Under the pieces are notes generated by a model. That model made no database searches. It saw nothing but the letters and a program-made list of their open reading frames with translations, and was not told the DNA's origin. From Convolutriloba macropyga (lineage: Eukaryota): a stretch of DNA of 64,000 nt. Of this stretch, positions 3,001 to 24,015 are shown piece by piece. The stretch spans positions 13,640,001 through 13,704,000 of the forward strand of contig NC_134469.1 of NCBI RefSeq assembly GCF_964194025.1, given 5' to 3'. The translations under genes were made by a program, and so were the position numbers. Within the stretch, counting starts at the first letter, position 1, and each line of letters begins with the position of its first letter.

Positions 3001-3883
3001 TAATTTTTCTTATTTTCATGTTCGCTGATAGTTTTTGCCCTCTAAATTTATCCAACATTTAAAGAAACCAATTCTCTCAATCTAGACCTCTCTTTCTTTT
3101 TTCTATCATAAACACAAACCACAAATATAACACACTCGAACACACATGCATACACCAACACAAGCACAAATACAAACAAAGAAATAAAACAATTTAAGAT
3201 TTTTTGGGCATCTTTACTCAAGGTTAATTACCGTTAGTCTAAATTCTAATTGTTTTTTATTCACAAAATAATTGTGGAATTTTGGAGGCAATTGTATTTG
3301 TAGTGGTGAAATTCACACTAAAAACTAAAATGATCCTTTTGAAAAGCTTTTTTCCTCAAAGAACTTCAAAAAGAACTTTTCACAAGGCTTTTGATGTTTG
3401 ATGAGCCTAATGGAATTTATACCTATCATTTAAAGGAACGAGCTCACTCACACTAACTCTTTTTCTTTGTCTCTCTTGCAGACATACCTTACATTTCAAA
3501 ATGCGCACACATGCGTACATCCACAAGCGTGCGCGCGCCCACAAACAAAAACCTTGCAACCGAAAACATTTTCAAGATTTTCCTTTTTGGCATATAATCT
3601 TTATTCAGGGCATGTTACAGTTAAAATAGGCCTTCTAGGTTTTTCAAAGAATTGAAAAAAATTAGTTAACAGTTAAGTTTATGTTTTGGACCTTTCAACA
3701 TTTGAATTAAGTGTAGTTTTAGAGAAAAAGGAAACTTTTTCTTCTGAAATGAATTGAAAATAAAATTCCTTTCTTTCTCCCTTCTTCGTTCTTTCATGAG
3801 TAGTTTAAAACTAAAAACATAGCTGGCAAATTGCCAGAAACTAGCCGCAATAGCTTCATAGATCTGACCATCAAAAAGAAGGT

Positions 3884-4468
3884 AGTAGTAATAGGGTGGA
3901 CGACAGTCCCGGGGGGGGGGGGGGGTGAAGACCCCCATGTATTAAGATTGGTTATAGCGGTTTTTGACCGCTAAGGGTCTTCCCTAATGTATTAAGATTA
4001 GGGATAGAAGCTAGGGGCGCCTAAATGTATTAAGATAGGGTATAGGGTGCATATATTAAGATTAGGAATAGAATCTCCATGTATTAAGATTAGGTATAGC
4101 CGCCATGTATTAAGATTGGGTATAGCCGCCATGTATTAAGATTAGTCATAGCGGCCAACATGTATTAAGATTAGTTATAGCAGCCGACATGTATTAAGAT
4201 TAGTTATAGCGGTCGACACGTTTTAAGATTATTTATATCCGCTGACATATATTAAGATTAGGGGTATTTTTTGAAAAATTGTTGAGGTTTTTGTACATTT
4301 TTACGCCGTTTTTTCAATAATTTCTAAATACTCTCTTCTGATTGGTTAAAAATGACAGCTTTTTTAAAGAAAATTGAATTGAAAAAGTTATAAATAACAG
4401 ACACAGTATAAATTATGCACATCAAACTACAAAATCACTCTAACATTTACATTCAACAGGTATAAATT
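3884..4468 (+). repeat. Left TIR of the Maverick (~585 bp)
   Basis: Reverse complement of 21167-21748; about 9 substitutions plus a few small or homopolymer indels by manual comparison. Confidence 0.96.
3936..4265 (+). repeat. Tandem array of ~11 copies of ATGTATTAAGATT(A/G)GNTATAG inside the TIR (mirrored at ~21373-21702)
   Basis: Directly visible; unit spacing mostly 26-29 bp, longer for the outermost copies. Confidence 0.95.
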
Positions 4469-4629
4469 GTTATCAAAATAAGTGAAAACCGAGGTACATT
4501 TAGCCGAGTGGGTTTATAAATCCGACAAAAAGGAAAAACTTGTGTAGCTAACTGAGTAAAAGGTACAATTGTTAAAAACTAATGTCGACTTTATTGGGCA
4601 CCAGCTTAGTGTATACCCAGTAATCAAAT

Positions 4630-5028
4630 TTACATATAATTACTAAAAAAATTTAGTGCATGCACATCATGAACATTGTTCAAGTTTGTTTGTAAAAAAT
4701 TAAATAGATGAAAAGCAGCATAAATAGTGTAGAACCCACACAAGTTGTCCATTTTCTGGAGTGGTCTGTGTATCATTTTCTGATACTTTTAATTCAAAAA
4801 TTTGTAATGTGTGACTGATCGTGCTAGAGAATCCGCATAGTAATAGTTCCTATTGAGGCGACCAATCATTATCCAATGTTAACCAACCTCACTGCTTGGG
4901 GAAGTGTTGATGATTGCAAAAGTAAAATAGGGTAAATTTGGGACAAAATCTGCTGGAAAGGATCCAATATACCGGAATTTTAGCTCTAGATTACGTTCAA
5001 TAATGTCACGAAGTGAGGTGTTATCCAT
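4630..5028 (-). pseudogene. Adenain-like cysteine (maturation) protease with two premature stops; not in ORF track
   Basis: Manual translation: MDNTSLRDIIERNLELKFRYIGSFPADFVPNLPYFTFAIINTSPSSEVG*HWIMIGRLNRNYYYADSLARSVTHYKFLN*KYQKMIHRPLQKMDNLCGFYTIYAAFHLF...NYM*. Has the IxNT..G-HW, DS and Q..CG catalytic motifs. Confidence 0.92.
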
Positions 5029-5093
5029 GACAAATAAGTTTTCTTTTCTTTATCTCACAAGCTCCGTTTGTACAAGGATTCCTGACAGAGCAA

Positions 5094-5297
5094 TCAAGTT
5101 GAAAACTTTCGTTCTGTTGAGAGAAGCAACAATCTTTGGATTTTGTCAACCGTTTCGTCCTGGGTGCTGGGATGAAACAAAACAATAATTATAAAAAGTC
5201 CAAGGAAAATTAGCAAAGGAATATAAATATATATATTTGAAGTTAGTCTACTCCAGTTCACATCCATTAGTGAATTAACAATTGATGTAGAGAACAA
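5094..5297 (-). CDS. Small predicted membrane protein of the Maverick (probably frameshifted)
   Basis: Hydrophobic stretch IYIYIPLLIFLGLFIIIVLF; co-oriented between the capsid and protease genes. Confidence 0.4.
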   Translation of the reverse strand: MFSTSIVNSLMDVNWSRLTSNIYIYIPLLIFLGLFIIIVLFHPSTQDETVDKIQRLLLLSTERKFST

Positions 5298-5367
5298 CAG
5301 CTAGATAGAGAGGTTAAGACTACAAATGTTCCAACAAAGTACATAAAACCGAAAAAATGAAAAATTA

Positions 5368-6695
5368 TTAGACATTTTTAGCAACAGTCCCAAACTGATC
5401 AATTTTAACAGTGGACATCCTTTCTCCCAGAACAATGATTTCTGTCACGTTTCTTAGCGAACGATCAAAAAACATTTCCAATCGAAAACTTTCACCGCTG
5501 AGTTCAGGATAATGAATATTTTCGCCAGCATCTTGAAGTGAAGTGAGATCGAATACTAGTATGTAGTGGTTCTGAAACTGATGATGTGGTAACGCAGGAA
5601 TTTCCTCGTTAAAATTCATTGCTTTTATTGTTGTTACGTATGCTCTTCAGTCATTAGTTGTATCAAGTGATACTATAGCTCTACCTCCGCGAACAATTCG
5701 AAGTTCTCGCAAACCAAATTTCTGATAATGGAAAGGATCTTCTTGAAAATGTCCCGTGAATGCCGAATTGGTGTTAATCGCAATAGCTACTCTTCTGATT
5801 GGAGCATTGTTAAAAACATTTTCCTGAATAAACTGGTTCTGTCCTGAGGGAATAATAAATGTACGTGCAATGGTTTCCATAAAGTTGTAACAAGCAGGTT
5901 GATGAGTTAATTGGTATTTGATAGTCTGGTGATACACTTCGTTAACAACCACGCGTCGTGTAAATAAGGAACAGTCAAGAACCTTAAGGGAAACGTGAGG
6001 ATTGTAGGAAATCATGTAATAATTAGGTCTTGCACAAATCAATTTCAATCTTACTTTTGTATTTGGAAGCAGTAATTTTTCACATTGGAACAAGTCAATA
6101 GCTAATTTACCGTAGTAAGTGCTTCCATTTTTCAGCAGAAGTTCTTCCTCTCTGTCTATAAACGGGCTCTTCTCATAATCACTAGGTTGTTTTTCAAATT
6201 CGTATCCATGACAAGCCAAAATACCATCATTATTTCTCGTTGAAGCATTAAATTCATTGGAAATTAAAGCCTTGTGTCCATAGAGACCATTTGAGTTGTA
6301 CACTTGTTGATTGTTCAGATACACTTCACAGTTGGAGAAGAGTGAGTGTAAAATATTGTTGACGTGAGTTAGATAATGTAAATTGTCATCTGTGAAAGAC
6401 ATACCCATATCTGGTTTTCCATGCTCATCTTTTTTCATGAAGTCATCAAACAATCTTCCCTTTTGTAGTCCAACTTTGATTTGAAGGTGAATATCTCTCA
6501 TATCAAGATAGATGCTTCTATCTGTTTCAAATTCAAATTCAATGCTGCTTTCATCCAGTGAAGTACTAGGATAAACTTCTTGAACAGGAGAAGACTCAAT
6601 TGGTTCCAAAACAGGAATTTTGTCAAAAATCTCCAAGCACGAGTTTGTAAAGTGTCCATATCGAAAATTGGAACGTTTGATGATCTAGAATTCAT
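5368..6695 (-). pseudogene. Major capsid protein (double jelly-roll, PY/hexon-like)
   Basis: ORFs 6498-6695 (N-terminus, frameshift ~6635), 5647-6636 and 5368-5619 (same frame, one nonsense codon at 5647) join to ~440 aa. Motifs YP..SIEF, YLD, NNILHSLFSNCEVYLN, NPF-like DPFHYQ and FDLT are typical of Maverick major capsid proteins. Confidence 0.9.
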
Positions 6696-7047
6696 TTTAG
6701 ATTAGCAAATATATCTTTTCTTGTTCGACGACGTCGACTGATTTTTGGAGGTGATTTACGAAAAATGCGATGCTTTCTTGTTTTTCCTGCACCTAGCTGT
6801 TTACGTAAAGTTTTCTTTCCAACATCAGCAGCAACAGATTTGAGTTTTTTCTTCCCAGTCAAAACATTTCCAATTTCAGGAGCAGCCATTTCAATTAAAT
6901 CAGCTCCCACTCTTTTTGCTGCTGGGACAACATATCGTCTCAAAAACGGAATTGCTGTCCTCCCAATTGTTTGCGCTAAAGCTCCAAATCCCCTTCCCCT
7001 TTGTCTGGCATATCCGCGAAAATAGGTAAATCATTATCAGCAACCAT
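6692..7047 (-). pseudogene. Small basic core / membrane-active protein (QRGxG-type, adenovirus pVI/pVII/pX-like)
   Basis: Reconstructed MVADNDLP[fs]YFRGYARQRGRGFGALAQTIGRTAIPFLRRYVVPAAKRVG...KQLGAG...RRRRTRKDIF. QxGxG sites, amphipathic helix, Arg-rich tail; lies between the minor and major capsid genes. Confidence 0.75.
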
Positions 7048-7064
7048 TTCTTACAGTCTTAATT

Positions 7065-7876
7065 CTAAAAACGATTTTCAGAAGTTTTTCTAAACATTAG
7101 TACTGCTCTAGTTACTCCAACAGAGTTGAAAGGTACTTTTTCACCATAAGAGTCTCGGACCTCAAATGTTATGCTGTGGAATGAATTTTTCAGAATCTTT
7201 TTAAATTGTAGGTTGCGAAAATTTTGATAATTCATGTATTGCCCAGTTGAGATGATGTCTCCATTCTTGACCTTTGATATAAAAGGAATACATCGTAAAA
7301 GAGCAGCTTTTGTATCACCAACAATGTTGTATTCAACAATATCACTATATATCATCAAGGTATGTATTCGTACAATGTCATAAGGGAACTTGGGAAAATG
7401 TGGACCAGCACCGCTCATGAAAGCCCCCATCCCATAAACAGCATCTTCACATCCAAAGACATGACAAAGATCACTAAATATAACAAGTAAAGAATTCTCA
7501 TTGGGAAGACTCAAAGAAATTCGCTGTGTAATTTTGTTAACGTGTAATCTGATTGGTGTTTTTTCATACTTTTCTCGTTCCTGAACTTTTTTTGTTCATT
7601 TCGTTTACAATATCAGAGATCAAAGGATATAGACCTGGATCAAGTGTGTAATAGACTGATGGTTTTGTATTCGGTGTTGCTTCGTCTAGATAGAAAAAAT
7701 TCCCTTCCGTGATGTTTTGGTACAAGGAAGGATAAGATAGTTCTGTAATTGCAACCTCCCATTCTCCTTCGAGATTTATTTGTTCCGGAAGAAAGTTTGT
7801 AAAAGAACTTAATGTATTATTTGGGTAACAATCAAAGGAAGCATTCGAAACCAACTCTACAGTAAAAGAATTATCT
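7065..7876 (-). pseudogene. Minor capsid protein (penton-like, PX)
   Basis: N-terminal FTVELVSNASFDCYPNNTLSSFTNFLPEQINLEGEWEVAITELSYP and C-terminal IYSDIVEYNIVGDTKAALLR are characteristic. Frameshift near the T-run at ~7590. Confidence 0.9.
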
Positions 7877-8800
7877 CTAAATGATACACTTTGCAAGCTC
7901 TTGTTCATAAAATTTGCCTAAAATTTCATCACCTTGTTCTCCGTGAAGGTTATGGGTTGGTGGTTTTAAAGTCGCAATTTAAACAATTTGAAAAAATTCA
8001 CATGTGAATTGAGACTTGTAACCTTTTCTAAATGGGATATCGTACTTGGAGATTCGAACTTTGTCCCCAATTTTGAAGCGTGGTTTTTTGTACTCAAAAA
8101 TAGGGTTTTTGTAAAAAAAAAAAATTGACAAAATTCTGAATTTTTAACGTTTTTGGGGGATTTTACCTATAGATCTGTTAACTCTTGTGTTCATATTGTT
8201 AACAAAACTATCCATTTTGTGAACGTATTTATCACCGTTTTCCTCCATGTAGCGATAAATGATGTTTTTTAAAGATCTAATTGCTCTTTCTGCTATAGCA
8301 GCTTTTGTTTCAGTTCTTGTAGAGTAGATTTTGATGTCTTTACTCTTGCAAAATTAATTTTTCGAATTCTCCCCCGAACTCAGTACCTTGGTCAACCCAA
8401 ACTCTATCAGGTTTAGTGTTCTTCCTCAACATTTTTTTAAAGGCAGCTACAGCATCAGAGGCATATTTTGACTTCATTGATTGAACACGGACCAGGCGAG
8501 AAAAGACAACACATATCAATAAGTACTTCACACCGTTATTAAATTCAGACAATTTATCCATAAAAGCCAAATCAAGACACCAAATCTCATTGATACGTTT
8601 TGCAAAAGCAGGCAATCTTTTGAAATGTCGAATCGCTTGTCGAAATTTAGTGTAAGAATTCTTTCTGTATAAAAAATCAGTAACCTTCTTCTTTGACAAC
8701 CCGCTAGTTTTCTGAAGGTTTTGAACTGAACCATATGCGGCTTTTCCTTCCCTGTACAACCTCTGTAGCTTAGCTTTTTCAGATTTGGAAAGATTCCAGC
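7877..8800 (-). pseudogene. Retroviral-like (rve, DDE) c-integrase, no C-terminal chromodomain
   Basis: WCLDLAFM, VWVDQGTEF and, after a frameshift at ~8355, KAAIAERAIRSLK...RFKIGDKVRISK...FRKGY...GKFYEQELAKCII* (manual translation). Confidence 0.93.
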
Positions 8801-9180
8801 TTCCTCGTCCTTTGCTTATGGCATCTTTGTTTATAATTTTATGTGGATTTAAGCCAATTGCGTCAAGAATTGTGTAATAAATATCGGGACATTCGGCGTT
8901 TTTCCTCTTTAAAGTGTATACGAAATCGACAAATGCCACGTTTGTATCTCTTCCGTCTAACAAAATGGAGTCAGATAGGGATAGCTTAATGCGAGGTGAA
9001 TTTAAAATTTCATTGAAAAGTGATTCGTTGCTGGAAAACTTCTTTTTAGCGTTAACTTTTCTATAAACAGTTTCCAAATTTTTTGGAACCGAATCCGGTT
9101 TTTCGTTATATTTGTCCAATCTTTGAGGTGATAACCTGATTTTCTGATCATAAAGTTGTTGAGGAATCAAAACAAAATGA
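8780..9180 (-). CDS. Uncharacterised Maverick protein upstream of the integrase
   Basis: N-terminal ~125 aa of ORF 8340-9170 (…SPRIKLSLSDSILLDGRDT…); probably a separate gene fused to the integrase by a 1-bp deletion. Confidence 0.5.
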
Positions 9181-9480
9181 TCCTGAGTGACGATTGATGA
9201 TTGACGGAGTTAAAATTGATATAAGACTGATCCCTTTTTTGGAACTCAGGACCTCTCTTCTTTTACTGAGACTTGTTCTTTTTAAAATAAGATGAATTTC
9301 TTCTCTGAACTTTAAAACTTCTTGTTTTTGAATTTCTCTCAGCACTCCTCTCAGAAGGTTTACTATTCACTCGTTTAGAAACTGGATGAAGTCTTTGGGA
9401 CAATTTTTGAGAAAAATTATTTTGAAGCTCTGGGAATATTTCTGGAACGCGATCAGAGTAGAGAGATGTTGTGTGCTCAT
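9148..9480 (-). pseudogene. Conserved small Maverick protein (ECxxNLLxG type) overlapping the ATPase 3' end
   Basis: Manual translation MSTQHLSTLIAFQKYSQSFKIIFLKNCPKDFIQFLNE*IVNLLRGVLRE...SLSKRREVLSSKKG; TGA at the expected Cys. Confidence 0.65.
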
Positions 9481-10135
9481 CGTTCAAAAATGTAATCTGT
9501 TGCCTGCTTTGAGGTAGAAAAAATAAAGATGGCGTTGAACCACTGTTAGTACAGTATCTCAGAGTCGACTGTTTTTGGAGTCAAGTCAATAAGTAAATGA
9601 TCATAGGGAACTGAAGTTGCTGTGGTATACCCGTCTTTTAGTTGAGATCCCAATCCCATTTGTTGACTGAGCGGGTTTATTTGTAAGACGTCTCTGGGTG
9701 ATTTGAATAAAACAAAATGGGTGTTCTGCAGTTCAATATCCCTTCCTAGTTGGCTTTGATGAAAGAGATTGTGCTTTTTGTACACTGTACTTAAACCTTT
9801 ATGTCTACCAGCAGTAGCTATTTTCACAAATTCTTTCGAACTAGAAATTTCTTCACAAGAGTCATCAAAAATAAGTAAATACTTTGTTCCATTATTAGGT
9901 AAATTTTGTATCAACTCAAAATCAACACCTTGAACGAACTCAATGTTTTTTTTATATTTTTTGACATTAGTCCGTAAAGAGATTGATAGTGTTGATAAAA
10001 ATAGTAAATTTTGTCAAATTCTGGTTGAAAAGTTCCAAAAACTAACCAATCATGGATGAGATGGGATTTCCCAGATCCACTTGGTCCAACCAATGAAAAA
10101 AAAACTCGTTCTTTTGTGGAAATTATTTTGTTCAT
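9263..10135 (-). pseudogene. A32/FtsK-like genome packaging ATPase
   Basis: Walker A GPSGSGKS, Walker B LLIFDD, AGRH and LFKSPRD motifs; split across three ORFs by two frameshifts. Confidence 0.95.
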
Positions 10136-10395
10136 AATTTTGGGGAAGGTAAAATATATCCAACTGTACTCGACAAAAAGGCGATCCAAACTGTTGTCTC
10201 CTCACAAGTCTCAGCTAATGTAATTTTTACGATACAACAAGCTAAAATCAATAGTATGACAAAAAACTGGGACAAAAAAACTACTAAAGACCGGTTACAC
10301 GTCTGTCCAAAGCATTTCCAAGATTGACGTTCTTTATTATTGTCATCAAAGACAAAATTACCTAATTGAAGCCCCTTATCAGTGTGATAAGTCAT
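10132..10395 (-). CDS. Small two-TM membrane protein (87 aa)
   Basis: Intact ORF with two hydrophobic segments, W-x-C and C-terminal GYILPSP; resembles small TM proteins of Polintons and Polinton-like viruses. ATGA overlaps on both sides. Confidence 0.7.
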   Translation of the reverse strand: MTYHTDKGLQLGNFVFDDNNKERQSWKCFGQTCNRSLVVFLSQFFVILLILACCIVKITLAETCEETTVWIAFLSSTVGYILPSPKL

Positions 10396-10637
10396 TTATA
10401 CGCTATCTTCTTCCCTAGGGATAAAGGAACTGAGCAACTGAATTGAAACGTAAACAACAAAAAAATGCCAAAAATAACTGAACTAAACATAACACACAAC
10501 CAAAATATTGTTCCGTCAAAGGAATCAGTGAGAAAAAGCATCAAAATTGAAAAATGTACCAAAGTTAGGAGCAAGACTATGAAAGAATAGTACAGTATGG
10601 GAACACAGTATTTTTTGATATTTGTTGATCAACTCAT
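10392..10637 (-). CDS. Small hydrophobic protein
   Basis: Two hydrophobic segments; its stop overlaps the next ATG. Start uncertain. Confidence 0.45.
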
Positions 10638-10706
10638 TCTCTTATACTAATTTCAGAGGAAAAAAATACAAATAAAACTGATAAATTACAATCACAAACA
10701 CAAACA

Positions 10707-11173
10707 TTAAACATTATCAAAAAAATTTAAAGTCCATATCCCATAAACGTAAGCCTTTTTTTCTGCGCATTGAAGAGTCTTCTTGTGTTGATAGGGGTAG
10801 CTGCTGCAATTCCAATCAGCATCATCAATTTCTAACAGTTTGCAAGCCTTGGGACAACCAAGATCATCAAGATTTTCCACATCTTTACACAAGTAGGGTG
10901 ATAAAATTTTGCATTTTTCAAGTCCTTTAGCAAAGTACTCTGTTGTTGGTGAGCAATGATGATGTATAATAAAAGCCAGCTCAGAATAATCGAGCTTTCC
11001 AGGGTTCCAATTTATACCGTGCATTTTTTTGTATTCCATTTTGCTTGAAAATTCGGCTTGTAGTCTTTAGGTGGGAGAAAACTGTATCCAAGTACAATTC
11101 CGTCCTTAAAGATTCCCAACTCTTTGACAACTTTTCCTTCTAAGCATTCAATATCTAGTACAACGAGAGGCAT
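10707..11173 (-). pseudogene. DEDD-like 3'-5' exonuclease-fold protein with Cys/His tail
   Basis: Reconstructed MPLVVLDIECLEGKVVKELGIF...[fs ~11030]HGINWNPG...AKGLEK...NLDDLGCP...C..H...CA. Confidence 0.65.
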
Positions 11174-11213
11174 TCTTTCTTCTGGGATGATTTTTCAAAA
11201 AATGATCAACAGT

Positions 11214-11609
11214 CTAGCATTTTGTAAATACGTGGATGACAAATTTTATAAAGACACAAAAGAACAGACCAGTAATGTGACCCAAGAGACAAGAGCTCGG
11301 AAATTGAGGTAACATGTAACAAAAACCCGGTCCTTGGTTTGTAGTTGCTTTAACCGCTCCAGCAGAATCGTGTAAAATTGCATGTAAACGAAACACTTTC
11401 GATCTTGCGAGGAAAAAGTCCAGAATTGAATTACCGTAACCAAGTCCTCCGTGGGGGAAGTTTTGGTCAATTTCCTCCAAATTAATGTTTTGATCCCAAA
11501 TTTTACATGCAGCCAGGAAACAGTTTTTTCGTTTTTCGTTGTTGGGAAACATTGGAAGAATACTACTGTAACAATTAAAAATGTTTAGAAGTGTGACAAT
11601 ATCCATCAA
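11214..11609 (-). CDS. HD-motif protein, possibly a divergent phospholipase A2-like protein
   Basis: Intact ORF; GLGYGN...HAILHD spacing resembles the parvoviral PLA2 YLGPGN...HD pattern; hydrophobic C-terminus. Confidence 0.45.
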   Translation of the reverse strand: MMDIVTLLNIFNCYSSILPMFPNNEKRKNCFLAACKIWDQNINLEEIDQNFPHGGLGYGNSILDFFLARSKVFRLHAILHDSAGAVKATTNQGPGFCYMLPQFPSSCLLGHITGLFFCVFIKFVIHVFTKC

Positions 11610-11618
11610 TTTTTTTCT

Positions 11619-12014
11619 TTATTTATCTAAAGTGATACTAGTCTTTTTGAAAGTCTCTACATAAGAAAGAAGTTCAGGAAGATGTTCCAATAATTCTTTG
11701 TATTCCTCCTTTTTTAGTTCAATCTTTGTCAAAAAACTCCATTGAACTCCGTTCCAACGATGTTGTGAAATGGAAATTTCGTGTTTATCAGATAGATATA
11801 TTAAAGTAGTGCGTCGTAATCCGTTATAAATAACCCACTTTAGTTCTGAATAATTGGACTTACTGTCAAGTTTATCAATTTTGGGAAAATTTAGAGCTTC
11901 AAGAACTGTATAAGAAGACTTTTTTAGTTCGTAGTGAAATCTAACGTGGAAAACTTTTGATTTATTTCTTAGACTCAAAATAAGATTTCTGGAGGAACCA
12001 ATATTCCAACTCAT
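11619..12014 (-). CDS. Hypothetical protein, possible PC4-like ssDNA-binding fold
   Basis: Intact 131-aa ORF with ATG; beta-strand pattern ending IELKKEEYKELL. Confidence 0.5.
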   Translation of the reverse strand: MSWNIGSSRNLILSLRNKSKVFHVRFHYELKKSSYTVLEALNFPKIDKLDSKSNYSELKWVIYNGLRRTTLIYLSDKHEISISQHRWNGVQWSFLTKIELKKEEYKELLEHLPELLSYVETFKKTSITLDK

Positions 12015-12072
12015 TTTCAGTTTGAAAAAAACAAAAATGATTCAAATAATATGAATTAAAAAGACAAATACA

Positions 12073-12588
12073 TTATAAAATTACAAACTGAAATGTACAT
12101 TGTTGAATATTAGAAAAGTCCTTCAGATTTTGTATCAACTCCTTAAATTCATCCAGAGTGTAGCTGACATAAGTCACTTGTTTGAACTCGTTGTTCTCCT
12201 TTCTACAAAAAAGTCGAATTTGTACATAAGTTGAAGCTGGCTGGTCCTTGATGTATTGGAGGAAAGTAACATAGAGTCTGCGGTTTCGTCCAATGCTAAT
12301 CTCTCTCACCTTGTGACACTGTTCCAGCACGTGTTCCATGCCTATATTTTTGTCGAATTGAGGTTGGTGTTCTCTCATCTCCAGTTCTCCATTGAGAAGA
12401 TCTTCCTTGAGGAAGCAGAATTTCTTAAACTCATAGTCTCCAATTCGCAGTTGCTGGTACATTTCAAAAGTCCCAGAATTGTCTTTTCTAAAGACTTGGA
12501 TGGTTGGTTCAGTATAAATTTGTCCGTTTCTTGAAATCTGGGACATAGTTAATCTCCCAAATCTTTTCGAATTGGATCCAAAGTCCAT
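12073..12588 (-). CDS. Tandem PC4-like domain protein (may extend to ATG 12684 through one nonsense codon)
   Basis: LYVTFLQY...YVQIRLF...VSYTLDEFKEL resembles the PC4 pattern VxVxxF...VDIRxY...ISLxxEQWxxL; a second, weaker copy lies N-terminal. Confidence 0.55.
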   Translation of the reverse strand: MDFGSNSKRFGRLTMSQISRNGQIYTEPTIQVFRKDNSGTFEMYQQLRIGDYEFKKFCFLKEDLLNGELEMREHQPQFDKNIGMEHVLEQCHKVREISIGRNRRLYVTFLQYIKDQPASTYVQIRLFCRKENNEFKQVTYVSYTLDEFKELIQNLKDFSNIQQCTFQFVIL

Positions 12589-13131
12589 ATAAAAAGGAAC
12601 CGAATCAGTCCCTGGTTTTGGTTAGGATTGAGTGTACATTGAAGGAGCACTCGAAAGAAAAGGTGATACTTTAGAGAGAGACATTTCAACAGCTTGAGCT
12701 GAGAGTGAAATAGAAAATAAATGATTTGTATTTGTACGCAATTCCCCTCAATAACTTAAAATTTCCTTTTTTATGGTAAGTAATGACGTCATGTATACCC
12801 ATAAAAGGTATGCTAAATGACGTTATTTCCTTATAGGGTAATCTATTCGGAAATCTTGAGGTTCGTAAATTTTTTAACCAGAATTTCAAACGGATCCTGG
12901 TGTTTAGCTCGTCTGTGTTGCATTAAAGAAAAATAGTGCTTGAAATATTATGAACAAGTATAACAAAGAATTCTTTTAGTCTTCTGTTTCTTGAACTGCA
13001 ACTGCATCATTATGAAAATGATTTTTTAGCTTTTTATGAAAACAGAAATTGCAAGCTCTAAAAATAGAAAATTACGTTACCGTACTTTTTGTTTCCATAT
13101 ATAGGTTCTATTCTGTTATCCCGATATAGAA

Positions 13132-13737
13132 ATGGCAGCAATAATGTGTCAGGTTTTACCTCAATTTTACAGAGATTATAATGACAAGACATTATTCCTT
13201 TCTGTATCTGTTAAGGAGTATAAACCTTATCTACTCATTAAAAAATACTCCGTTGCTACTCATAATGACAATTTTTGTCCCTTAAAGACTTGTCGCTACC
13301 ACATTATTCTCATTTCATTCTCAGTGAAGGAGATACTAGAGATAATAGAAAATTTGTCTTATGTTTATCAAACAGTTGATTGCTTGTACACACTCTATAA
13401 ACACCAGTTCTTTGGTTCCATTATAGAAGAGTCAGGACTGGTCTTTGCTCAGTTAACCAGAGCGGTGGAGCACAACTTGAAGAAGTACGTGGAAAAAGTG
13501 ATCAGTATCTCCAAAAAACGATTGAGCAGAAAGAAGTTCAAGCGTCACCTACTACGCGCTGAGCAAAGAAATGCGAGCACTCAAACCCTTGGATCCTCTT
13601 TTCTAGATAGGGTGCATTCCCTTAGAAATTCAAAGTATGAGAGTGAACTTATAAAGATTGTTGATTGTTTGTTAGATGGACATGGCATAATTGATAATCT
13701 TGTTTTGTATCTTGAAATTAGAAAACAAAGTATATAA
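13132..13737 (+). CDS. Hypothetical Maverick protein (201 aa)
   Basis: Intact ATG ORF in a good context, divergent from the structural block; basic NLS-like KKRLSRKKFKR. Confidence 0.65.
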   Translation: MAAIMCQVLPQFYRDYNDKTLFLSVSVKEYKPYLLIKKYSVATHNDNFCPLKTCRYHIILISFSVKEILEIIENLSYVYQTVDCLYTLYKHQFFGSIIEESGLVFAQLTRAVEHNLKKYVEKVISISKKRLSRKKFKRHLLRAEQRNASTQTLGSSFLDRVHSLRNSKYESELIKIVDCLLDGHGIIDNLVLYLEIRKQSI

Positions 13738-14354
13738 TTTCTTGTTTGTGTTTTGTATCTGTGTTTATAATTTGAAAGAACGTATTGATAAAAATCAATT
13801 TTAAAAAAAACCGAAAATTCAAACAACTTTTTTGTTAAAAATCGAAAAAATTTTTAATATTTTCTCTTATATATCGAAAATTTTTTCAACACTTTTTCTT
13901 AAATATCGAGATTTGGATTTGAAAAATTTTCTTAAATGTCGAAAAATTGTTCAAAAACTGTTATTTAAAAACGCAGAAAAATATTCATTTTTCTTCATTT
14001 TACGATATGATTTTGCGCAAAAAAAGAAATTTTCTTTAAATTTTAAAATGACAACTGTCAAACTTGTTTTGTTTCAATAAATATCAAATCTCAAAACAAA
14101 AAATTTTATTAAAAATCGAAAAACTATTTCAGTTCTTTTCCTAAAAATCAATTTTTAAACGACTTTTTTTTGTTAAGAAACAGAATTTCTATCAAAGTTA
14201 AAATAAAATTTTGACAAAAATTGCTGTGTTTTTGTTTCAACATAGCTTGCATAGTGTTTGGAGTAAAGAGAAAGTTCAACTTAAAAGAAATGAATTCAAA
14301 CAAAAGTATAAATACATCACAAAGAATTCAACTATAAAATTTACAATATCAAAT

Positions 14355-15092
14355 TTATTCAAAAAGAGTTCTCACAACGTGATCTGGCAAGTATTGAATT
14401 TCATTGCCAAATGGACGGACTCTTTCAACAATTGCTGGAGGCTCTGTAGGTCGAACACTGATGGGAGTTACGAGAGCCTCATCTGTCAGCACAATGGGGT
14501 TGTGAGCTGTTCCGTCCTCTATGGAGGGGGTTGTCATTGACGGTGTAGTCGACATATCAGTCGAACCATAATACTGAGCTGGATCGAAGTTTTCCAGATC
14601 GTTAAATGACCACGTGGTGCTAGTATCGACACTCAATTCGCTTTGTTGACTGCTGCCAGCATTGCTCACTATCTGGAGAAGGCTGCTTTGCTGCTCTGGA
14701 CTGGATACTTGACTTGTCTCGGGTGTATGGAACCAGTTGTTGGGAATCTGTCCTTCCTCCCACGGAAATGTGTACTGAATGCTTCCAGCAACGTAGTTGT
14801 CGGGAAAATCTGTTCCGTTAACGTGAGGGCAGTGATGCCCACTGATCACAGCAACTTCGTGGCCCATTGGAACAGCGTGAGTTCCAAGCTGATTCTCCGT
14901 GATTGGAACCTGCCCCTGATGATATGTGTCAAACTGTTGTCGCTGGTGCTCAATAATGTGCCACACTGTGATAGGTAGGGTTACAACGGACTCGTAGAGC
15001 CCATTCGACAAGTCTCTGATGCTGATCCGACCGGTCTCCTCTAAGAAAGAAACTGAGTAGAGAAGGCTGTTGTTCTGCACTGTAAATTCCAT
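14355..15092 (-). CDS. Hypothetical Maverick protein (245 aa): compact N-terminal domain plus acidic S/T/P/Q-rich tail
   Basis: Intact ATG ORF with higher GC than its flanks. Confidence 0.7.
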   Translation of the reverse strand: MEFTVQNNSLLYSVSFLEETGRISIRDLSNGLYESVVTLPITVWHIIEHQRQQFDTYHQGQVPITENQLGTHAVPMGHEVAVISGHHCPHVNGTDFPDNYVAGSIQYTFPWEEGQIPNNWFHTPETSQVSSPEQQSSLLQIVSNAGSSQQSELSVDTSTTWSFNDLENFDPAQYYGSTDMSTTPSMTTPSIEDGTAHNPIVLTDEALVTPISVRPTEPPAIVERVRPFGNEIQYLPDHVVRTLFE

Positions 15093-15402
15093 TTCTCAAT
15101 GTGGTGAGACTAGAGTCAAAGGTAGTTGAGACAGAGGTGATGTTGTTTTTAAAGAGAAAGCAAGTGATGCTGGGTAAATTTTTCAGCTCTATTTATACTA
15201 AACTCCAACCATGGAGAACAAAGTTTCCAAAAAGGGTAATGTTTAGCAGAAAAAGTGACGTTATTTTCCAGAAAAGGAAATGTCTCAATTGTAAAGTGAC
15301 CAAAGAAGGAATCAACTCAGAAAATCTAACATTACTATTCGAAACAAGTAAGCTCAAAACTGAATAGACCAAAAAAGGTAACTTTTACACGTGTTACCCT
15401 AG

Positions 15403-15994
15403 TTAACAGCCAAAGATGGATAAGTTAGAGGAAATGAGTTGACAAAAAAAAGTCAAGCTTTGATAAATTCTCGCCATCTCGTTGAATCTCAAATCGATAT
15501 CGGAAGATGTTCCAAATTTGGAACTAAATTTTTGTACATAAATTTTGGGGAGTCGTATTCCAAATCGTACTCTTACCCCCTCTGCATTGTAGTCCTTGTA
15601 ATAATGAAAGAAGAGCGCACTGTGTAGAGATGAAGTAATTGTTACCGATTCAGGAATTGGGATATAATTAGATTGAGACAAATTTCTGTACTGTTCCATT
15701 ATCTCTGGGACAGAATTCAATATGAAAAGCATTTCATACTTGTTGATGTGTAGTTCTGACGATAAATCAAATGATTGTTTTATGTAGTCATCATACGAAT
15801 TTTTTTATAGAAAAGGTTGCATATTGAAATCCTTTACTAAATCGGATGATTCTGTTGTTTTGAGTAAAAACGTCCAAGAAATTGTAAAAGAAATAAGAGT
15901 CAACATCAATTTCGTCTACTCTGTAAGCATCAGCGATTCCTTCCTTTCTTTTGTAAATTTTTTCCAAAAGTTTTAAGTGATTTTTGATCAACAT
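15403..15994 (-). pseudogene. Hypothetical Maverick protein, frameshifted (possible PC4-like repeats)
   Basis: ORFs 15791-15994 and 15403-15732 join via YDDYIKQSFDLSSELHINKYE after one frameshift. Confidence 0.45.
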
Positions 15995-16745
15995 TTTTCA
16001 CAAATGAATACGGTATCAAGTAAAACCCTGTTAATATAAGAGAAAAATAAAATAGAAAAAGCAACGCATAAAATGAAATCGTTTATCTTGAGAATTAGAT
16101 TTCTAAAGCTGAAGTCTGATTGGGCGGGAGGTTCTATTACAACAACATTAAGTTGTACAACGTAAACTTGTTCTTCAATAATAGAAGGAAACTTTTTCTT
16201 GATCTCTCTCTTGTTGTGTTGAAAGCACATTTATGCGCTAGTTTCTATTTTCAATAAAACTAAATTTGATCTCAGACAGTAAAATTTATCAATATTTGAG
16301 ATACACAATTTTGGACTACATCTATTCAAAATACTGTGAATCGTGAATTTTTAAAGAATAGTTTTCTATTTGTAATTTTTTTGGTGAAATTTTCTGTATG
16401 GGAAAACTTAAATAAAGTTTAACAAATAAGAGTGAGAGGAAAATGAGAAAAAAATGTAAAGTTGGAATTTTTCGCCACGGAATGAACTTGTACATTTAAA
16501 CTGAAAGTTAGTTAATTATATGCAGAACTGTCGCAATTGGAATCATATCAATCTTCTAGAATGTTCTGGCATGACGCCTGAATCTAAAAATAGAAACAAC
16601 GTCATTTTAATACATGGAAGTGATGAGTAATCATCGAGTACCGCAAAGTTACATAGCAGCTTTAAATCATTATACTTTCTGTTTTTTCAGATTCAGTTGC
16701 TCCGCAATTTACTGAATTTTTCATAAATTCATCTTGAACTTAACA

Positions 16746-19700
16746 ATGCCTGCTCTCGATAGAAATCTCCCAGTGAAATGCACAAAGTGTGAAAAAATGG
16801 TTGCTAAACTAAACATGGCCAGGCACAAAAAATCTTGTGATAGTGGGACTTTATCATGTCCCAAATGTCCTAACTTTTTTACAAAGAAGAAGGAAGACTT
16901 GAACTATCACCTTGCCAAGCATCATGCCTCGAAAGATGTTCAGCTTAGTACTGTGTGTACTGTGTGCTTGGAAGAGTTCCCAAGCTTTTATTCTCTTCAA
17001 CAACACAAGAGGAGAAAGCATGGAACTTCGACAAAAATTGGGACCAAATCGAGTGAAAAGCTCAAAGAAGTCCTAGAATCAGAGGAGCTAGACCAGAACA
17101 ACGAGCAATTACAGCAGGCACTTAGTGCTTGTCAGCACTTTTTCACGATACGGAAATGGAGAATGGGAGACATCGAGTGTTTAACTTCAAGTTGTCCAAG
17201 CTCGATCCCAATGAGATCAACGAGAAAAAAAAAGAAGTTTTTGAAAAATTAAATTGTGCTGCCAAAGTAAATCTGGCTCTTGGATTTATTTTGCGCAATG
17301 TGGACATAGACGAGTATCGGTACTTTTATGCGCATGAGAACAACACTTTCTTTGAAAAATATCATTTGCTCTGCTCAAAAGGTGACTTGGTCTCTCTTCA
17401 AGACAGAGTAGAGAAAATGGATCTAGTGGAGACGTGTGCACAGGAGAGGGAAAATACAAAGTGGCAATTTGCTTTGACTACTAACGTAACAATATTCAGC
17501 GCTCTCCTAAAAAACATTCCAATGGGATGTATCGATGCTGTTCTTCTTGAACAGTATCTTAGACGACCAGATGTGAATTGTCTTGTATCGAATGGTTACG
17601 GCGAACCTTACAAAGATTATCTTTGCCTGTTCAGAGCTATAGCTGTCCACTTGTACGGATCATCTGAGTTGGAAACGAATGCTGCAAATTTGTTTAGTGC
17701 TTTTCTTCATGAATCTGGTGGACATGATGCAATCAATTTTAGAGGAGTATCAATCGATCACCTCGTGTTTGTTGAAAATGCGATAAAGCATAACATCTTT
17801 ATTTATGATATTGATATAGAGGAAGGAGAATTTGTCGGAGAACTTGCGAGAAGAAGTGTTGAAATGTACGAAAAGAACATTAATTTACTGCGATACAACG
17901 ACCATATATGCTACGTGGATGATATTAACACATTCTTTAAACGATTCCGTTGTCCCAGTTGCGATACATTTATAAAGCATGCAGGTCAATTCAACCCTCA
18001 TTTAAAATCCTGCAAAGACAGAGTACAGCATATTTACCCAAAGAGTGTGTATACTCTGCGAGAAACTTTGTTTGATAAACTCGATGCATTCGGAATTTCC
18101 TACAACGATGATCAAAAATTGTTCAAAAACTTGGCTATTTTTGACTTTGAATCTATCTGCGTTCCCACTGAAGAGCTAAAAGATACAAATACAACTACTT
18201 GGATTGGAAAACATGAGCCAATATCTGTCTCCATTTCCTCCAACTTGATTGAAGAACCTGTGTTTCTATGCGACAAAGACCCTAAGAACCTGATTGTTTC
18301 TTTTGTCGAAACTCTTGAGGAGTTAGCTAACAAGAGTAAAACCGAAATGCAAGCAAAATTTGCATCAATTCAGGAGATAATCAATAGCCGAGTTAAAGCC
18401 ATCTTTGAAAAATTGAAAGAAAGGAAAGGTCACACAACTCCTGCATTTGATTTTGAAGATGTGTATTGAAGAAGAGGAGGAAGCTGATATGTCTACTCAG
18501 TTCCTACAAATGCAGAAAAATCAACTTTTGGGCTTGCAACAACACTTTGAGCGTTATATCAACACATTTCCTGTATTTGGATTCAACAGTGGAAAGTATG
18601 ATTTGAATCTCATCAAATCCTATCTTCTACCTTATCTCATTCATGAACGGGATATTCAACCTACAGTTATCAAAAAGGCAAATCATTTTGTTTCCTTCAA
18701 GTTCGGTGACGTGCAGTTCCTTGACATTCTAAATTTCCTTGGAGGAGCTACATCTCGATTCATTCCTCAAAGCTTACAAGACCAGCGAGACTAAAGGTTT
18801 CTTCCCAAATGAATGGTTCGATTCTCCAAATAAACTTGACGCACCTTTTCTACTTTTCTACCCCCTATGAATGTTTCTTCAGTAAGCTGAAGGATCACAA
18901 CCCTTTGGAGAAGGAATTCACTAATTTTACTAAGTTGCTGAACAGTGGACTATCTCAACAAGAAGCTCTGAAAAAATTGAGACTGAAAGAACTTCCCCAT
19001 CTGGAGTCGATAACTACAATTACTTGAAAGTGATTTGGGAGGAAGAGCAAACGTCTACATATAGAGATTTTGTCAAGTGGTACAACAACAAGGATGTTGT
19101 TCCAACACTAGAAGCAATGAAAAAAATGATGGATTTTTATAACAACAAAGGAATTGACATGTTAAAACTCGGATGTACACTTACCAATTTGGCAAACATT
19201 TGTCTTCACAAGTCAACAAACCACAAATTTTTCCCATTTGTTGAAAGTGACAAGGATTTACATGATAAAATACGCGAAGACATGACTGGTGGACCTTCTA
19301 TTGTGTTCACAAGAAAGGCAGTAGTTGACCAAACCTACATCAGGAACTCAGAAAATATATGTAAATCTATCGTGGGTATTGATGCTAGTCAACTCTATCC
19401 CTTTTCAATGTGTCAAGAAATGCCAACAGGACTTTACACACGATGGCAGCTTGACACAAATTCTCAAAAATTCAAAGCTCGAAACAATAAATCTCGAACA
19501 TTTGAGAACATGGTCATGTCTTATCTCCAATCACAACGCCCAGAATGCACAATTGAAAGCTACTATACAACCGGGAAACAGGAAAAGATTGACTGTTTTA
19601 CCGTGGACGGTTTTTGTGCTCATTGCGACACAGTATTCGAAGCTATGGGTTGTTATTTCCACTTTTGCCCATTCCAAGAATCTCGAGCAAGCCTCTCGGA

Positions 19701-21082
19701 GGAGGAAATGCAGAGAGAAATTAGAAAAAGAGAACATGATGAACTGAGAAGAGATTATTTGAGAAACAAGGGATACAATATTGTTGAAGTCTGGGAGTGT
19801 AAATGGTTGGAACGTGTTGAAGAGGAAAGTGTCAGAAATCACGTGAGGAAGAAATTTCCCTTCAAACTACCTATGACGCAAGAGTCTCTTTTAGCGAAAA
19901 TAAGAGATGGGAAAATGTTTAGATATGTACAGTGCGATCTCGAAGTTCTCTAATTTCCCTCCTATTTTTAAGAAATTTAATATCAGTCGAGCCGATATTG
20001 GAGAATATATGAGAGAGTATGCAATTGAAAACAACCTACTCAAACATCCTCAACGAATGTTGATTTCGAGCTTCAAGTTGGAAAATGGGTCAATCATTTT
20101 TCCTTTACTCAACTTTTATCTCAGTCTTGGTCTGAAATGTACAAAGATTTATAGATTTCTACAATACACACCCAAAAAATGCTTCAACAATTTTGTTCAG
20201 TCAGTGGTAGATGCTAGAAGAGCGGGTGATGAAAATCCTGATTCTAGCGTTGTGGCTGAGACAATGAAATTGTTGGGTAACAGCTCTTATGGGTATCAAA
20301 TTATGGACAGAAGTAGACACACAGAGACCAAGTACCTGAATGATGAGAAGAAGCACAAAGCAATCAATGGGAAAATGTTTAAGCGTCTGAACAATGTGTC
20401 AAAAGAAATTTACGAAGTTGAGCTTGCAAAATCAAAAACTGAGCATCGAGAACCTATAATAGTTGGATTCTTCATACTTCAGTACGCTAAATTACGTATG
20501 TTGGAGCTCTACTATAGCTTCTGTGACAGATTTTGCGATGTGGATAAATTCGAAGTGTTAGAGATGGATACAGATTCTCTTTATTTAGCGCTAGCGCACG
20601 AGAACATTTATGATTGTATTCGACCTGCTAAAAAGGAAGAATGGGAGACTTTGCGAGAAAAGGACTGCGATGATTCCTTCAGAGCAGATGCCTCACACAA
20701 CTTTTTCCCTAGAACATGTTGTTCTAAGTATAAGAAGCATGATAAACGGGAACCAGGTCTTTTCAAGGAAGAATTCAGATGCACCGAAATGATTTGTCTC
20801 TGTAGTAAAACCTATTGTTGCTACGATGCTAGGTCAGACAAGTACAAAATCAGTAGCAAAGGCCTGAACAAAAGAACTCTGGAGGAGACTGGAGATGGAC
20901 CAATGGAAAAATATCGACGAGTGATGGATGAAATTATCAACCTTACTTCGACAAATAGAGGTTTCAGAACAATAAATCATTGTGTTGCTACATATGAACA
21001 GACAAAGAAAGGGCTATCCTATTTCTATCCCAAGCGAGTAGATCTAGATGACGTTATCCATACCGAACCCCTCAAATTGTAG
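16746..21082 (+). pseudogene. polB: Protein-primed family B DNA polymerase with N-terminal C2H2 zinc fingers and inserted Vsr-like endonuclease; ~5 frameshifts
   Basis: Exo I DFES, Exo II GFNSGKYD, Exo III YNNKDV, GGPSIVF, Pol A DASQLYP, Pol B KLLGNSSYG and Pol C EMDTDS across six consecutive ORFs. Confidence 0.97.
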
Positions 21083-21166
21083 AGCTTTTATAATAACTTT
21101 TATTCTTCTCTAATATGTGATATTTTTATTATTTTGTCTTTGTGAATTTTTATAATTATGCTTTAA

Positions 21167-21748
21167 AATTTATACCTATTTAATGTAAATGTTCGAGTGA
21201 TTTTGTAGTTTGATGTGCATAATTTATACTGTGTCTGTTATTTATAAATTTTTCAATTCAATTTTCTTTTAAAAAAAAGCTGTCATTTTTAACCAATCAG
21301 AAGAGAGTATTTAGAAATTATTGAAAAAACGGCGTAAAAATGTACAAAAACCTCAACAATTTTTCAAAAAATACCCCTAATCTTAATATATGTCAGCGGA
21401 TATAAATAATCTTAAAACATGTCGACCGCTATAACTAATCTTAATACATGTCGGCTGCTATAACTAATCTTAATACATGTTGGCCGCTATGACTAATCTT
21501 AATACATGGCGGCTATACCCAATCTTAATACATGGCGGCTATACCTAATCTTAATACATGGAGATTCTATTCCTAATCTTAATATATGCACCCTATACCC
21601 TATCTTAATACATTTAGGCGCCCCTAGATTCTATCCCTAATCTTAATACATCAGGGAAGATCCTTAGCCGTCAAAAACCGCTATAACCAATCTTAATACA
21701 TGGGGGTCTTCACCCCCCCCCCCGGGACTCGTCCACCCTATTACTACT
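21167..21748 (-). repeat. Right TIR of the Maverick (~582 bp)
   Basis: Reverse complement of 3884-4468. Confidence 0.96.
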
Positions 21749-22115
21749 GAAGGTAAAAAAGACACAAAGGGCTGAGATGTTAAATTTCGATTAAGAATCT
21801 GTATAACTGATTGCTGTTTCTATTAGACGCTCTTGAAAAACCTTCAAAAAGAGTGACAAGAACTCAATTGCCCTTCTCTCTTTGAATTAAAGCACAGAAA
21901 AGTCCATTTCAGAGTGAGAAGTCATTTTTGAGAGTGAGGTAAGTCACGTGTGACCAAAAATTTAATCACGCAAATGAACAAAAATACTAGCTCCACTAAG
22001 TGCAAAAAATGACGTCACGGGCGCAATTCAGTTGAAATTGAATGAACGAATGAACAAAAAGCAGATTTGAAGTGGTTGTGACGTCATTTGGTCGTAACAA
22101 AAATCTTGATGAAAT

Positions 22116-22675
22116 AAAAAACATAGCTGGCAGATTGCCAGAAAATAGCCGCAATAGATTCGTAGATCGGCAGTCTAAAAAAAACAGTAAAAAAGACAGA
22201 CCAAAAAAATTCGTCTTTTCATTGAAGGCTGATCTGTTATATTTTGATTAAAAATCTGTATAGGTTTTTGCTGCCTCTATTAGCTGCTCTCAAATAACCT
22301 TCATTTAGAATGACAAACACCCATTTGACCTTATCTTTTTGAATTGAAGTAAATTAAAGTCAATTTCAAATTGAGGAAGTCATTTTTGAGAGTGAGGTAA
22401 GTCAAGTGTGACCAAAAATTTAATCACGCGCATGAACAAAAAAACTCGCTCCACTAAGAGCGAAAAATGACGTCACACATGCAATTCAGTTGAAATTGCA
22501 TGAACGAATGAACAAAAAGTGGCTGTGACGTCATATGGTCGTAACAAAAATCATGACGACGAAATAAAAAAAAACCAAGAGAAGGCCAATAATAGCCCCA
22601 GCTATCGCTGTGCGGCTATTAAAAAAACCAAGAGAAGGCCAATAATAGCCTCAGCTATCGCTTCGCGGCTATTAA
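22116..22675 (-). mobile_element. Non-autonomous Helentron (HINE/DINE-1-like) element, terminal ~55 bp tandemly duplicated
   Basis: Subterminal inverted repeat AATAGCCGCA/TGCGGCTATT, hairpin CTGGCA-GAT-TGCCAG at one end, palindrome at the other, ends in A/T runs, no TSD. Confidence 0.8.
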
Positions 22676-24015
22676 AAAAGATTTAGTTTTTTGATCTACA
22701 GAGCCGCCCAAGAGCAACTTCAATATACAGAAGTGAAAAAATTGTTCTTAAAACTTGCAAAAAATGACATTTAGAAAAAAAATTTTCAACCTGGCGATCC
22801 AAATAAATTTCTTACTCTCAGATTCTTCTATTTTTCATTCTCCCCGAGGTTATTAGTTCGAATCATCTGCTCTGACAGTTTAAAGAATACAAATAAAGAA
22901 AGATTTCCAACTTTAGAAATTTTCAGAAATTTCTTTGGTTGATTTGATGTTCATTACATGAAGCTAATTTTTTTTACGTCTCCGAAGTCTTGAGAACATT
23001 GAATTGGTTAGTTCGGATGAAATCAGAAGAATTGTTTGCAAACAAAACTCTAGAATTCACAATAAAAACATTCTTCTGGTTTTATTTTCACAATTTCAAA
23101 GTTGATTTTTGCTATTTTGAGAGATCTAAGTTGCCTGAGGTCCTCGATATTCCATAAATGTTTCACCAGAACAGAGAATAATTGGTTCTTACTTTATTTG
23201 CTTTATTATGTATCAAGCCGAATACATACTGACGGTTCGAAAAGTTTTTAAATGAAATTCGGAGAAAAGAACCTTAGATTTTTTGGAATTTGCGGTTAAA
23301 ATAACTTAAATTGTTAATTTTTAGTCTTAAAATGTAAAGAATTACCGGTGACAAATCTCCATTTAACATAACTAAGGTTACTACAATTTACCAACGTTTT
23401 TATTTCAAATTTCAACGGCCATCTGTCACCTCCCCCAAGCGAAGTGGTTTTTTCCTGTTCAATTTTTCCTTCCAGTTTTGGAGTCCCCCTTTTTGAAACT
23501 TTTGATAATTTTTAATAATAGAAATCAAAACTAGATCCTGAGGGCTACAACATGATGTCGTTCTTTTTTCTCTACGATCCGTAAACAAAAATTGAAAATT
23601 TGACAAGAAAAAGGCAGTCTCGCATATATATTCCCGCAATATTGAAAAAATGTTGGAACAATAAAATTGAGAAAAAGAGGCATTTTTGATCGAACTTTAT
23701 TTAGTTGTGTGCTCTCACAAGCATAGTGCTCGGAGGTTGCAGACCTTAACGTAAAAAGCAATCACTTCATTTCAAACTACAGACACCACTTATTTGGGAA
23801 ATCAAATATGGCGTTTTTTATGTATTCGATATCTCGACCCAAAGTTACAGGTCAACTAACGACCTCCTCTCGAATGGCGAAGGAAAGTATTTACTCACAC
23901 AACAATAGGGTTCTTGCAAGCATGCAACACAAGCTTATAGTCTCCTATTTCGAAAATAGAGCAGTCATTCTCGGGGTCAAAGATTGGTCCAAAATGTACA
24001 GGCTTTTTGATTTAC

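Follow-up and report, generated by a model that had tools for sequence, protein, structure and literature searches.

The element spans positions 3884-21748 of the window, the stretch of 64,000 nucleotides analysed here, and inspection of its ends together with alignment of its TIRs showed that it starts with AGTAGT and finishes with ACTACT. The arms of 589 and 585 bases agree at 573 aligned positions and differ by 9 mismatches and 4 gaps, giving an identity of 98.5% where a preliminary description of this DNA had estimated about 98% by eye, and a second detection recovered the same arms. The left TIR contains 11 cores of a tandem unit of 26-29 nt. The left and right flanks are consecutive parts of one host repeat, which is uninterrupted at 22117-22418, 28721-29022 and 52163-52492 of the same window. 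Because the flanks rejoin a repeat that is unbroken elsewhere in the window, the element is a true insertion and its ends are correct; the termini and the target-site duplication (TSD) proposed previously are therefore confirmed, with GAAGGT on both sides of AGTAGT/ACTACT and the host repeat split between them.

We probed the element with ORFs that have stayed open in sibling copies and counted 20 gene slots (table 1), close to the roughly 19 genes reported earlier but not the same number. The minus-strand genes follow one another in transcription order as accessory ORFs, ATPase, 100-aa gene, 135-aa gene, integrase, minor capsid, basic 118-aa gene, major capsid, small hydrophobic ORF and protease, and the right end of the element is occupied by the polymerase by itself, encoded on the plus strand.

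Table 1. Features of the inserted element and its borders, numbered from the first letter of the window ("siblings" are other genomic copies of the family, "here" is the window copy)
Feature	Positions	Strand	Basis
Left target-site duplication, 6 bp	3878..3883	+	identical to 21749-21754; GAAGGT both sides
Left TIR, starts AGTAGT	3884..4472	+	TIR alignment
Adenovirus-like cysteine protease, 132 aa in siblings, interrupted here by two stops	4633..5028	-	Pfam Peptidase_C5
Small hydrophobic ORF, sibling length 84-95 aa, frame change here	5024..5267	-	sibling ORFs, dN/dS
Putative major capsid protein (PY/hexon), sibling length 442 aa, one internal stop here	5368..6695	-	size, position, conservation
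Basic 118-aa gene between capsid genes, frame open	6695..7030	-	sibling ORFs
Minor capsid protein (PX/penton), sibling length 270 aa, frame change here	7065..7872	-	PX alignment
rve integrase, 313 aa in siblings, frame changes here	7880..8816	-	Pfam rve
135-aa conserved gene, limits approximate	8780..9182	-	sibling ORFs, dN/dS; PZ by synteny only
100-aa gene overlapping ATPase end, one stop here	9184..9480	-	sibling ORFs
A32-like packaging ATPase, sibling length 291 aa, two frame changes here	9266..10135	-	Pfam Pox_A32
87-aa two-helix membrane-type ORF, open	10132..10395	-	94% identical between subfamilies
84-aa hydrophobic ORF, broken here	10399..10637	-	sibling ORFs
155-aa ORF, N-terminal VLDIE motif, Cys/His tail, frame change here	10707..11173	-	motif by eye
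134-aa ORF with LHD motif, last residues unlike siblings	11214..11606	-	motif by eye
131-aa ORF, open	11619..12014	-	weak match to tandem-unit family profile
Tandem two-unit beta-beta-beta-alpha protein (predicted), 199 aa in siblings, 171 here	12073..12588	-	ESM Atlas lead
199-aa ORF, no family assigned, open	13132..13737	+	ORF, dN/dS
243-aa ORF, Ser/Thr/Pro-rich tail, open	14355..15092	-	ORF, dN/dS
202-aa ORF, no family assigned, two frame changes here	15402..15994	-	sibling ORFs, dN/dS
80-aa ORF with hydrophobic end, open	15988..16230	-	ORF, dN/dS
Putative protein-primed polymerase B, sibling length 1452 aa, at least four frame changes here	16746..21082	+	motifs
Right TIR	21164..21748	-	TIR alignment
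Right target-site duplication	21749..21754	+	matches left 6 bp

The integrase matches Pfam rve (PF00665) at E=1e-11, over the cut-off, and retroviral integrases of the PDB at E=6e-6. The best Pfam match of the ATPase is Pox_A32 (E=8e-5), its 22.7 bits lying just under the cut-off of 22.8, and that of the protease, obtained with the sibling ORF, is Peptidase_C5 (E=0.004, below cut-off). The 442-aa protein, for which 1414 relatives were found, gave no match in Pfam, NCBIfam and PDB searches; it is a candidate for the double-jelly-roll major capsid protein PY from its size, its synteny (it follows the PW-like gene) and its conservation. The basic 118-aa gene presumably occupies the PW/GasderminX position, by synteny with the vertebrate Maverick map, and the 100-aa gene the PM/Cupiennin position, by synteny. 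The small hydrophobic ORF had no family match in Pfam or NCBIfam. The 1452-aa frame is presumably pPolB, on the strength of exonuclease, palm and vOTU-like motifs recognised by eye. Besides the exonuclease and palm motifs, this protein comprises N-terminal C2H2 fingers, which were matched in family-profile searches, vOTU-like Cys/His motifs and a VSR-like insert (a weak match, E=0.026); it gave no Pfam or PDB polymerase match, and its pieces gave no PF03175 match at E<=0.5 or, in a separate search, at E<=0.1. The minor capsid protein shows, by eye, a motif-by-motif likeness to the PX rows of Ciona, sea urchin, Xenopus and turtle in the figure available from PMC4028283 (Fig. S2). With all six core slots assigned, AGTAGT ends and a 6-bp TSD, the identity that had been proposed, a Maverick/Polinton with six core genes, is supported.

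The element belongs to a family that is widespread in the 1.18-Gb genome. Exact matches to a degenerate 24-nt capsid motif were found at 305 sites, versus 0 for the control, and matches to a terminus motif at 520 sites, versus 26 for the control; both counts are lower bounds, and the terminus motif misses the ends of subfamily B. These controlled exact-pattern counts replace first-pass candidate counts of 678, 4565, 686, 1782 and 10196, which we rejected as copy numbers. We fetched 20 copies from the top of the capsid-score ranking, nine belonging to subfamily A, ten to subfamily B and one to subfamily C. Subfamily A is 91-95% identical to the window copy and subfamily B about 77%, and within subfamilies the left halves are 98.2-99.8% (A, eight compared) and 98.5-99.4% (B) identical. 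Full-length open frames are present in these 20 copies for the major capsid in 20 (the property selected for), the protease in 18, the minor capsid and the ATPase in 16 each, the integrase in 12, the polymerase in 7 and the accessory ORFs in 15-19. In four of the 20, all six core frames are open. Hand counts at top-ranked places gave full-length, stop-free frames in about 96 of the 137 cases scored for the capsid and in 33 of the 150 scored for the polymerase. Since copies and frames were taken from the top of the ranking, all these figures overestimate openness. The preliminary description had suggested that younger intact relatives may exist, which the relatives with open frames bear out; an intact capsid ORF is present in every copy of this capsid-selected sample.

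The ends of other copies tell of separate insertions. The TSD rows of 12 copies were left out because of internal AGTAGT, and seven further end pairs were re-examined (six of B, one of C): each has its own exact 6-bp TSD, with 0-2 TIR mismatches over the stretch aligned. Among the four A copies with both true ends, two have an exact TSD, one a TSD with five of six letters and one none. Damage is common among the fetched copies, many of which show breaks, deletions or expanded TIR arrays; two of them have no polymerase but keep both ends. The family is young and of high copy number, with repeated recent insertion at many sites. A high Maverick load in invertebrates has a precedent, since in an acoel genome Mavericks amount to 4.5% of the assembly according to the available part of PMC6451197. 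Vertebrate Mavericks average 22 copies per genome, with maxima of 287 in axolotl and 280 in tuatara, all defective, and at most 38 intact copies (PMC8097293, as far as its accessible text goes); copy number here is comparable to those top counts, but many frames here are open. Pieces of the element were also present in two other organism-labelled runs at low depth; the flanking host repeat was present alongside them, so these runs do not support horizontal transfer.

The window copy was described earlier as a complete virus. It does have its full extent and all six core genes, but each of the six is interrupted by stops and/or frame changes (table 1), so that the copy is complete in extent yet dead. 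In unbroken pieces compared with subfamily A, pN is 0.023 and pS 0.097; most of the 5-7% difference between the window copy and A therefore predates the insertion and arose under selection. The window copy is a sister sub-lineage, and its decay followed a fairly recent insertion (TIR difference of 1.5%).

Capsid, core and accessory genes of the family have been under purifying selection. Between subfamilies A and B, the major capsid gene has a dN/dS of 0.03, the minor capsid gene one of 0.02 and the polymerase gene one of 0.04; the range is 0.04-0.10 across polymerase, integrase, ATPase and protease, while the remaining genes, accessory ones included, lie at 0.02-0.25. Each value comes from a single pair, with dS above 1 in most cases and near saturation, so the values are rough, but their sign is safe. 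For the 155-aa gene dS is saturated versus B, and dN/dS is 0.05 versus C.

These results lead us to consider the window element, with a probability of about 85%, as a decayed proviral copy of a young, high-copy Maverick family of Beta type (group I-like) in an invertebrate host. This host is an animal whose mitochondrial code reads TGA as Trp. By its negative PF03175 searches, the likeness of its penton by eye and its motifs, the family looks like a Beta-type (group I-like) Maverick. The Beta class is defined by divergence of the polymerase from pfam03175 in the accessible text of Starrett et al. (2021, PMC8502044), and the absent PF03175 match fits this definition. Shared with the Beta adintoviruses shown there are the putative pfam03175-divergent polymerase with OTU-like motifs, the integrase, the adenain, the FtsK-type ATPase, the penton, the putative hexon and genes in the GasderminX and Cupiennin positions; unlike them, the family has an integrase without chromodomain and C2H2 fingers fused to the polymerase.

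With vertebrate Mavericks or group I Polintons, as described by Barreat and Katzourakis (2021, PMC8097293), the element shares (AGT)2 ends, a length of 17.9 kb, TIR length, purifying selection on capsid genes and, by position, the gene order int-mcp-pw-Mcp-pro and atp-pm-pz. Unlike in those elements, the polymerase lies off the ATPase block on the opposite strand, with an accessory block of about 6 kb between, and the major capsid and protease genes are separated by one more small ORF; Maverick layout is known to vary. The departure from the vertebrate layout noted before is consequently partial: the detached polymerase and the central block are real, but the order inside both core modules is that of vertebrates. 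The VSR-like nuclease inside the polymerase, a weak match here, recalls the pPolB2 Polintons of marine nematodes and molluscs in the accessible part of Jeong et al. (10.1101/2023.08.22.554363), which have Group 2 polymerases; no fusogen was recognised in the element here.

The life cycle of the family can be outlined from the Polinton replication model, which includes a terminal protein and a vOTU domain (PMC11161782, available portion). The protein-primed polymerase would copy the linear genome, starting at the TIR ends, and the vOTU domain would release the terminal protein. The ATPase would then package the genome into a shell of major and minor capsid proteins matured by the protease, and the integrase would re-insert it, with the 6-bp duplication of the target that is seen here. 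Spread may proceed through particles, or at least via a capsid-dependent step. On present sequence evidence, we give about even odds that the young subfamilies spread by particles rather than inside cells only. The main alternative is that the family spreads as an intracellular transposon only, the copies having multiplied without particles and capsid conservation reflecting old viruses that entered separately. The breaks, deletions and expanded TIR arrays of many fetched copies, including the two that keep both ends without a polymerase, agree with this alternative, and purifying selection between subfamilies would then record ancestry, not present use. However, dN of the major capsid is still below dS within subfamilies (0.005/0.023 in A and 0.002/0.012 in B), and the window copy compared with A has a pN/pS of 0.16 in the capsid, so that we regard purely intracellular spread as unlikely, if still a serious contender.

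The central accessory block separating the polymerase from the ATPase module spans about 10.1/10.4-16.2 kb; the middle region of about 5.5 kb delimited previously at 10.7-16.2 kb was right in its right end but begins too late. Its ORFs are real genes, as shown by purifying selection and the same order in A, B and C, although none matched a family in Pfam, PHROGs or NCBIfam. The tandem-unit protein has at least 148 relatives, down to about 25% identity, with two tandem units, and among 13 accessory ORFs the 131-aa ORF weakly matched its family profile (E=1.7e-5). The top matches of the tandem-unit protein in the ESM Atlas are all PC4 (0.82-0.85; 169 of 256 features), which we treat as a lead only, and a single-sequence model of pLDDT 48 predicts two strand-strand-strand-helix units. 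The protein may thus share the beta-beta-beta-alpha unit of the PC4/Sub1 family (PF02229), from which it differs in having two units in one chain, without significant sequence or fold match. Pfam PC4 was matched by none of 98 relatives; the score against a host PC4 exon was reached by 11 of 300 shuffles and is not significant, this one exon being the reference after two bacterial candidates turned out to be false matches; and the fold search with the pLDDT-48 model gave a best Z of 4.6 (Pur-repeat rows reached 3.8), while Foldseek had no match at E<=0.001. The ORFs at 13132-13737 and 14355-15092, thought by eye to be PC4-like, were dropped, as profile and shuffle comparisons gave them no support. 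Our literature search found no relevant paper joining Polinton with PC4.

The 155-aa protein may be a DEDD/MAEL-like nuclease, going by its motif as recognised by eye; it had no Pfam or NCBIfam match, its model reached pLDDT 29 and its best PDB match was an unrelated ferredoxin-thioredoxin reductase (E=0.009). The 134-aa protein, with its LHD motif, may bear a faint likeness to parvovirus-type PLA2, which Pfam and other searches, all without match, did not support. One distant relative of the tandem-unit protein continues into a stretch resembling the 134-aa gene. Scans of IMG/VR (with the capsid, the 155-aa protein and a distant relative of the tandem-unit protein) and of one JGI metagenome, which work by exact words and reach close relatives only, gave no confirmed relative. 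Most likely the central block serves replication and host control, and our best guess, from leads in sequence and models, is that the tandem-unit protein is a candidate PC4-like ssDNA binder and the 155-aa protein a candidate DEDD/MAEL-like nuclease. One might instead see in the block captured cargo without a role in the virus cycle, given that Pfam, PDB and Atlas support stays at lead level for all its ORFs and that the word-based search recovered only close relatives of the tandem-unit protein; we find this improbable in view of the gene order common to the three subfamilies, the dN/dS of 0.02-0.25, the deep relationships of the tandem-unit protein and the distant relative running into the 134-aa-like stretch, a hint of old linkage in the block. 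Still less credible is that the locus of the window copy is intact and its breaks stem from faulty assembly, for which the breakage of all six core genes beside so small a TIR difference might be cited, because sibling copies keep long open frames in the same assembly and the breaks include in-frame stops besides frame changes. The window copy itself is an ordinary fossil.

Such accessory cargo has precedent, since genes labelled MAEL, SSDBP and SLATT appear in adintovirus maps (PMC8502044, Fig. S2), a comparison by labels, not sequences; as far as the text layout of that figure shows, the MAEL and SSDBP labels sit in the Alpha-polymerase panel. The suggestion that the middle block points to a poorly described lineage is weaker in this light. 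A bolder proposal sees in the family a Maverick that is still active and forms particles, from an invertebrate lineage that has been little sampled. It would be part of an undescribed clade whose integrase lost the chromodomain, whose polymerase became fused to zinc fingers and whose members carry, as a fixed cassette, PC4-like ssDNA binders together with a MAEL-like nuclease; as replication aid and silencing counter-measure, the cassette would have enabled hundreds of copies with many open frames. We rate this whole combination as rather doubtful; if true, few natural sources would be better than this host for seeking animal Maverick virions. Particle formation by animal Mavericks is a long-open question in the accessible text of PMC8097293, and at least 305 capsid-bearing sites, subfamilies about 99% alike and strong capsid selection make this a good host for seeking transcripts, particles and free linear genomes.

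The lack of a chromodomain in the integrase, remarked on in the preliminary description, is by design and not by decay. The protein is 313 aa long in both subfamilies A and B, stopping right after the SH3-like tail, and a Pfam search gave no chromodomain match. Chromodomain annotation or motif was found in none of the 120 best integrase relatives (down to 56% identity), and the 86 of these 120 that show the terminal motif all end within 11 residues of it. Starrett et al. (2021, PMC8502044) count the chromodomain among the features of adintovirus integrases, and in the freely accessible literature covered, PMC5803895 included, we found no description of a clade without it. Such a clade, with high member counts in other genomes too, could be used to test whether the chromodomain steers insertion sites. 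One such integrase cluster, with 336 members, shares no more than 61% identity with anything that was scored in the 1.18-Gb genome, which indicates that the short integrase marks a wider clade, expanded in other genomes too.

The ends of the Maverick copies differ among the three subfamilies, A, B and C, to which the siblings of the window element belong: the bases lying immediately inside the terminus vary by subfamily, and in B, in C and in part of the A copies the TIR contains an additional AGTAGT motif (sibling copies L023-L039, L009, L017 and L019). The window copy combines a terminus of the type seen in C with a body that is nearest to A, an association of C-type end and A-like body that, on sequence grounds, may have arisen by recombination.

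Rearranged copies are present also among the siblings. Two A copies, L004 and L012, entirely lack the polymerase region while still possessing the right end, and their array of the 26-nt TIR unit is expanded, reaching ~2 kb in L012; judged by their sequences, both are non-autonomous derivatives. Another copy, L001, has an internal tandem duplication of ~3.6 kb, with the capsid genes inside the duplicated part. The paired places L005/L006 and L013/L014 (G000:C4, 15.82-15.89 Mb) correspond to two Maverick copies in opposite orientation, ~37 kb apart. The pair shares 99.8% identity, and the hexamer flanking the left end of one recurs next to the right end of the other; this suggests a rearrangement between, or derived from, these two copies.

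Within the window element, the 100-aa gene (9184-9480) shares the tail of the ATPase gene (9266-10135) in a different frame, an overlap that is conserved in both A and B. Relatives with 43-74% identity (clusters P0211, P0397, P0399 and P0011) recur on many short ENA/Logan contigs, a single sequence occurring on up to 54 of them, whereas the genome copies sit on long contigs.

The Maverick insertion site lies within one copy of a dispersed host repeat, which has very high abundance in the sequencing runs examined and is listed below with the other features.

Other features of the window
Feature	Window position	Strand	Remarks
Non-LTR retrotransposon, fragmented	32952-35823	+	endonuclease and RT domains
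Host gene, NOC3-like	24622-38249	-	exons across ~14 kb; PF07540, PF03914
Host gene, Sir2-family ORF	60243-61079	-	278 aa; no intron apparent
Dispersed host repeat family	21768-22693, 28716-29754, 52155-52719		
Hairpin/MITE-like inverted repeats (n=3); direct duplication	41781-42158, 45114-45457, 53177-53663, 47103-50255		duplication of 1.77 kb
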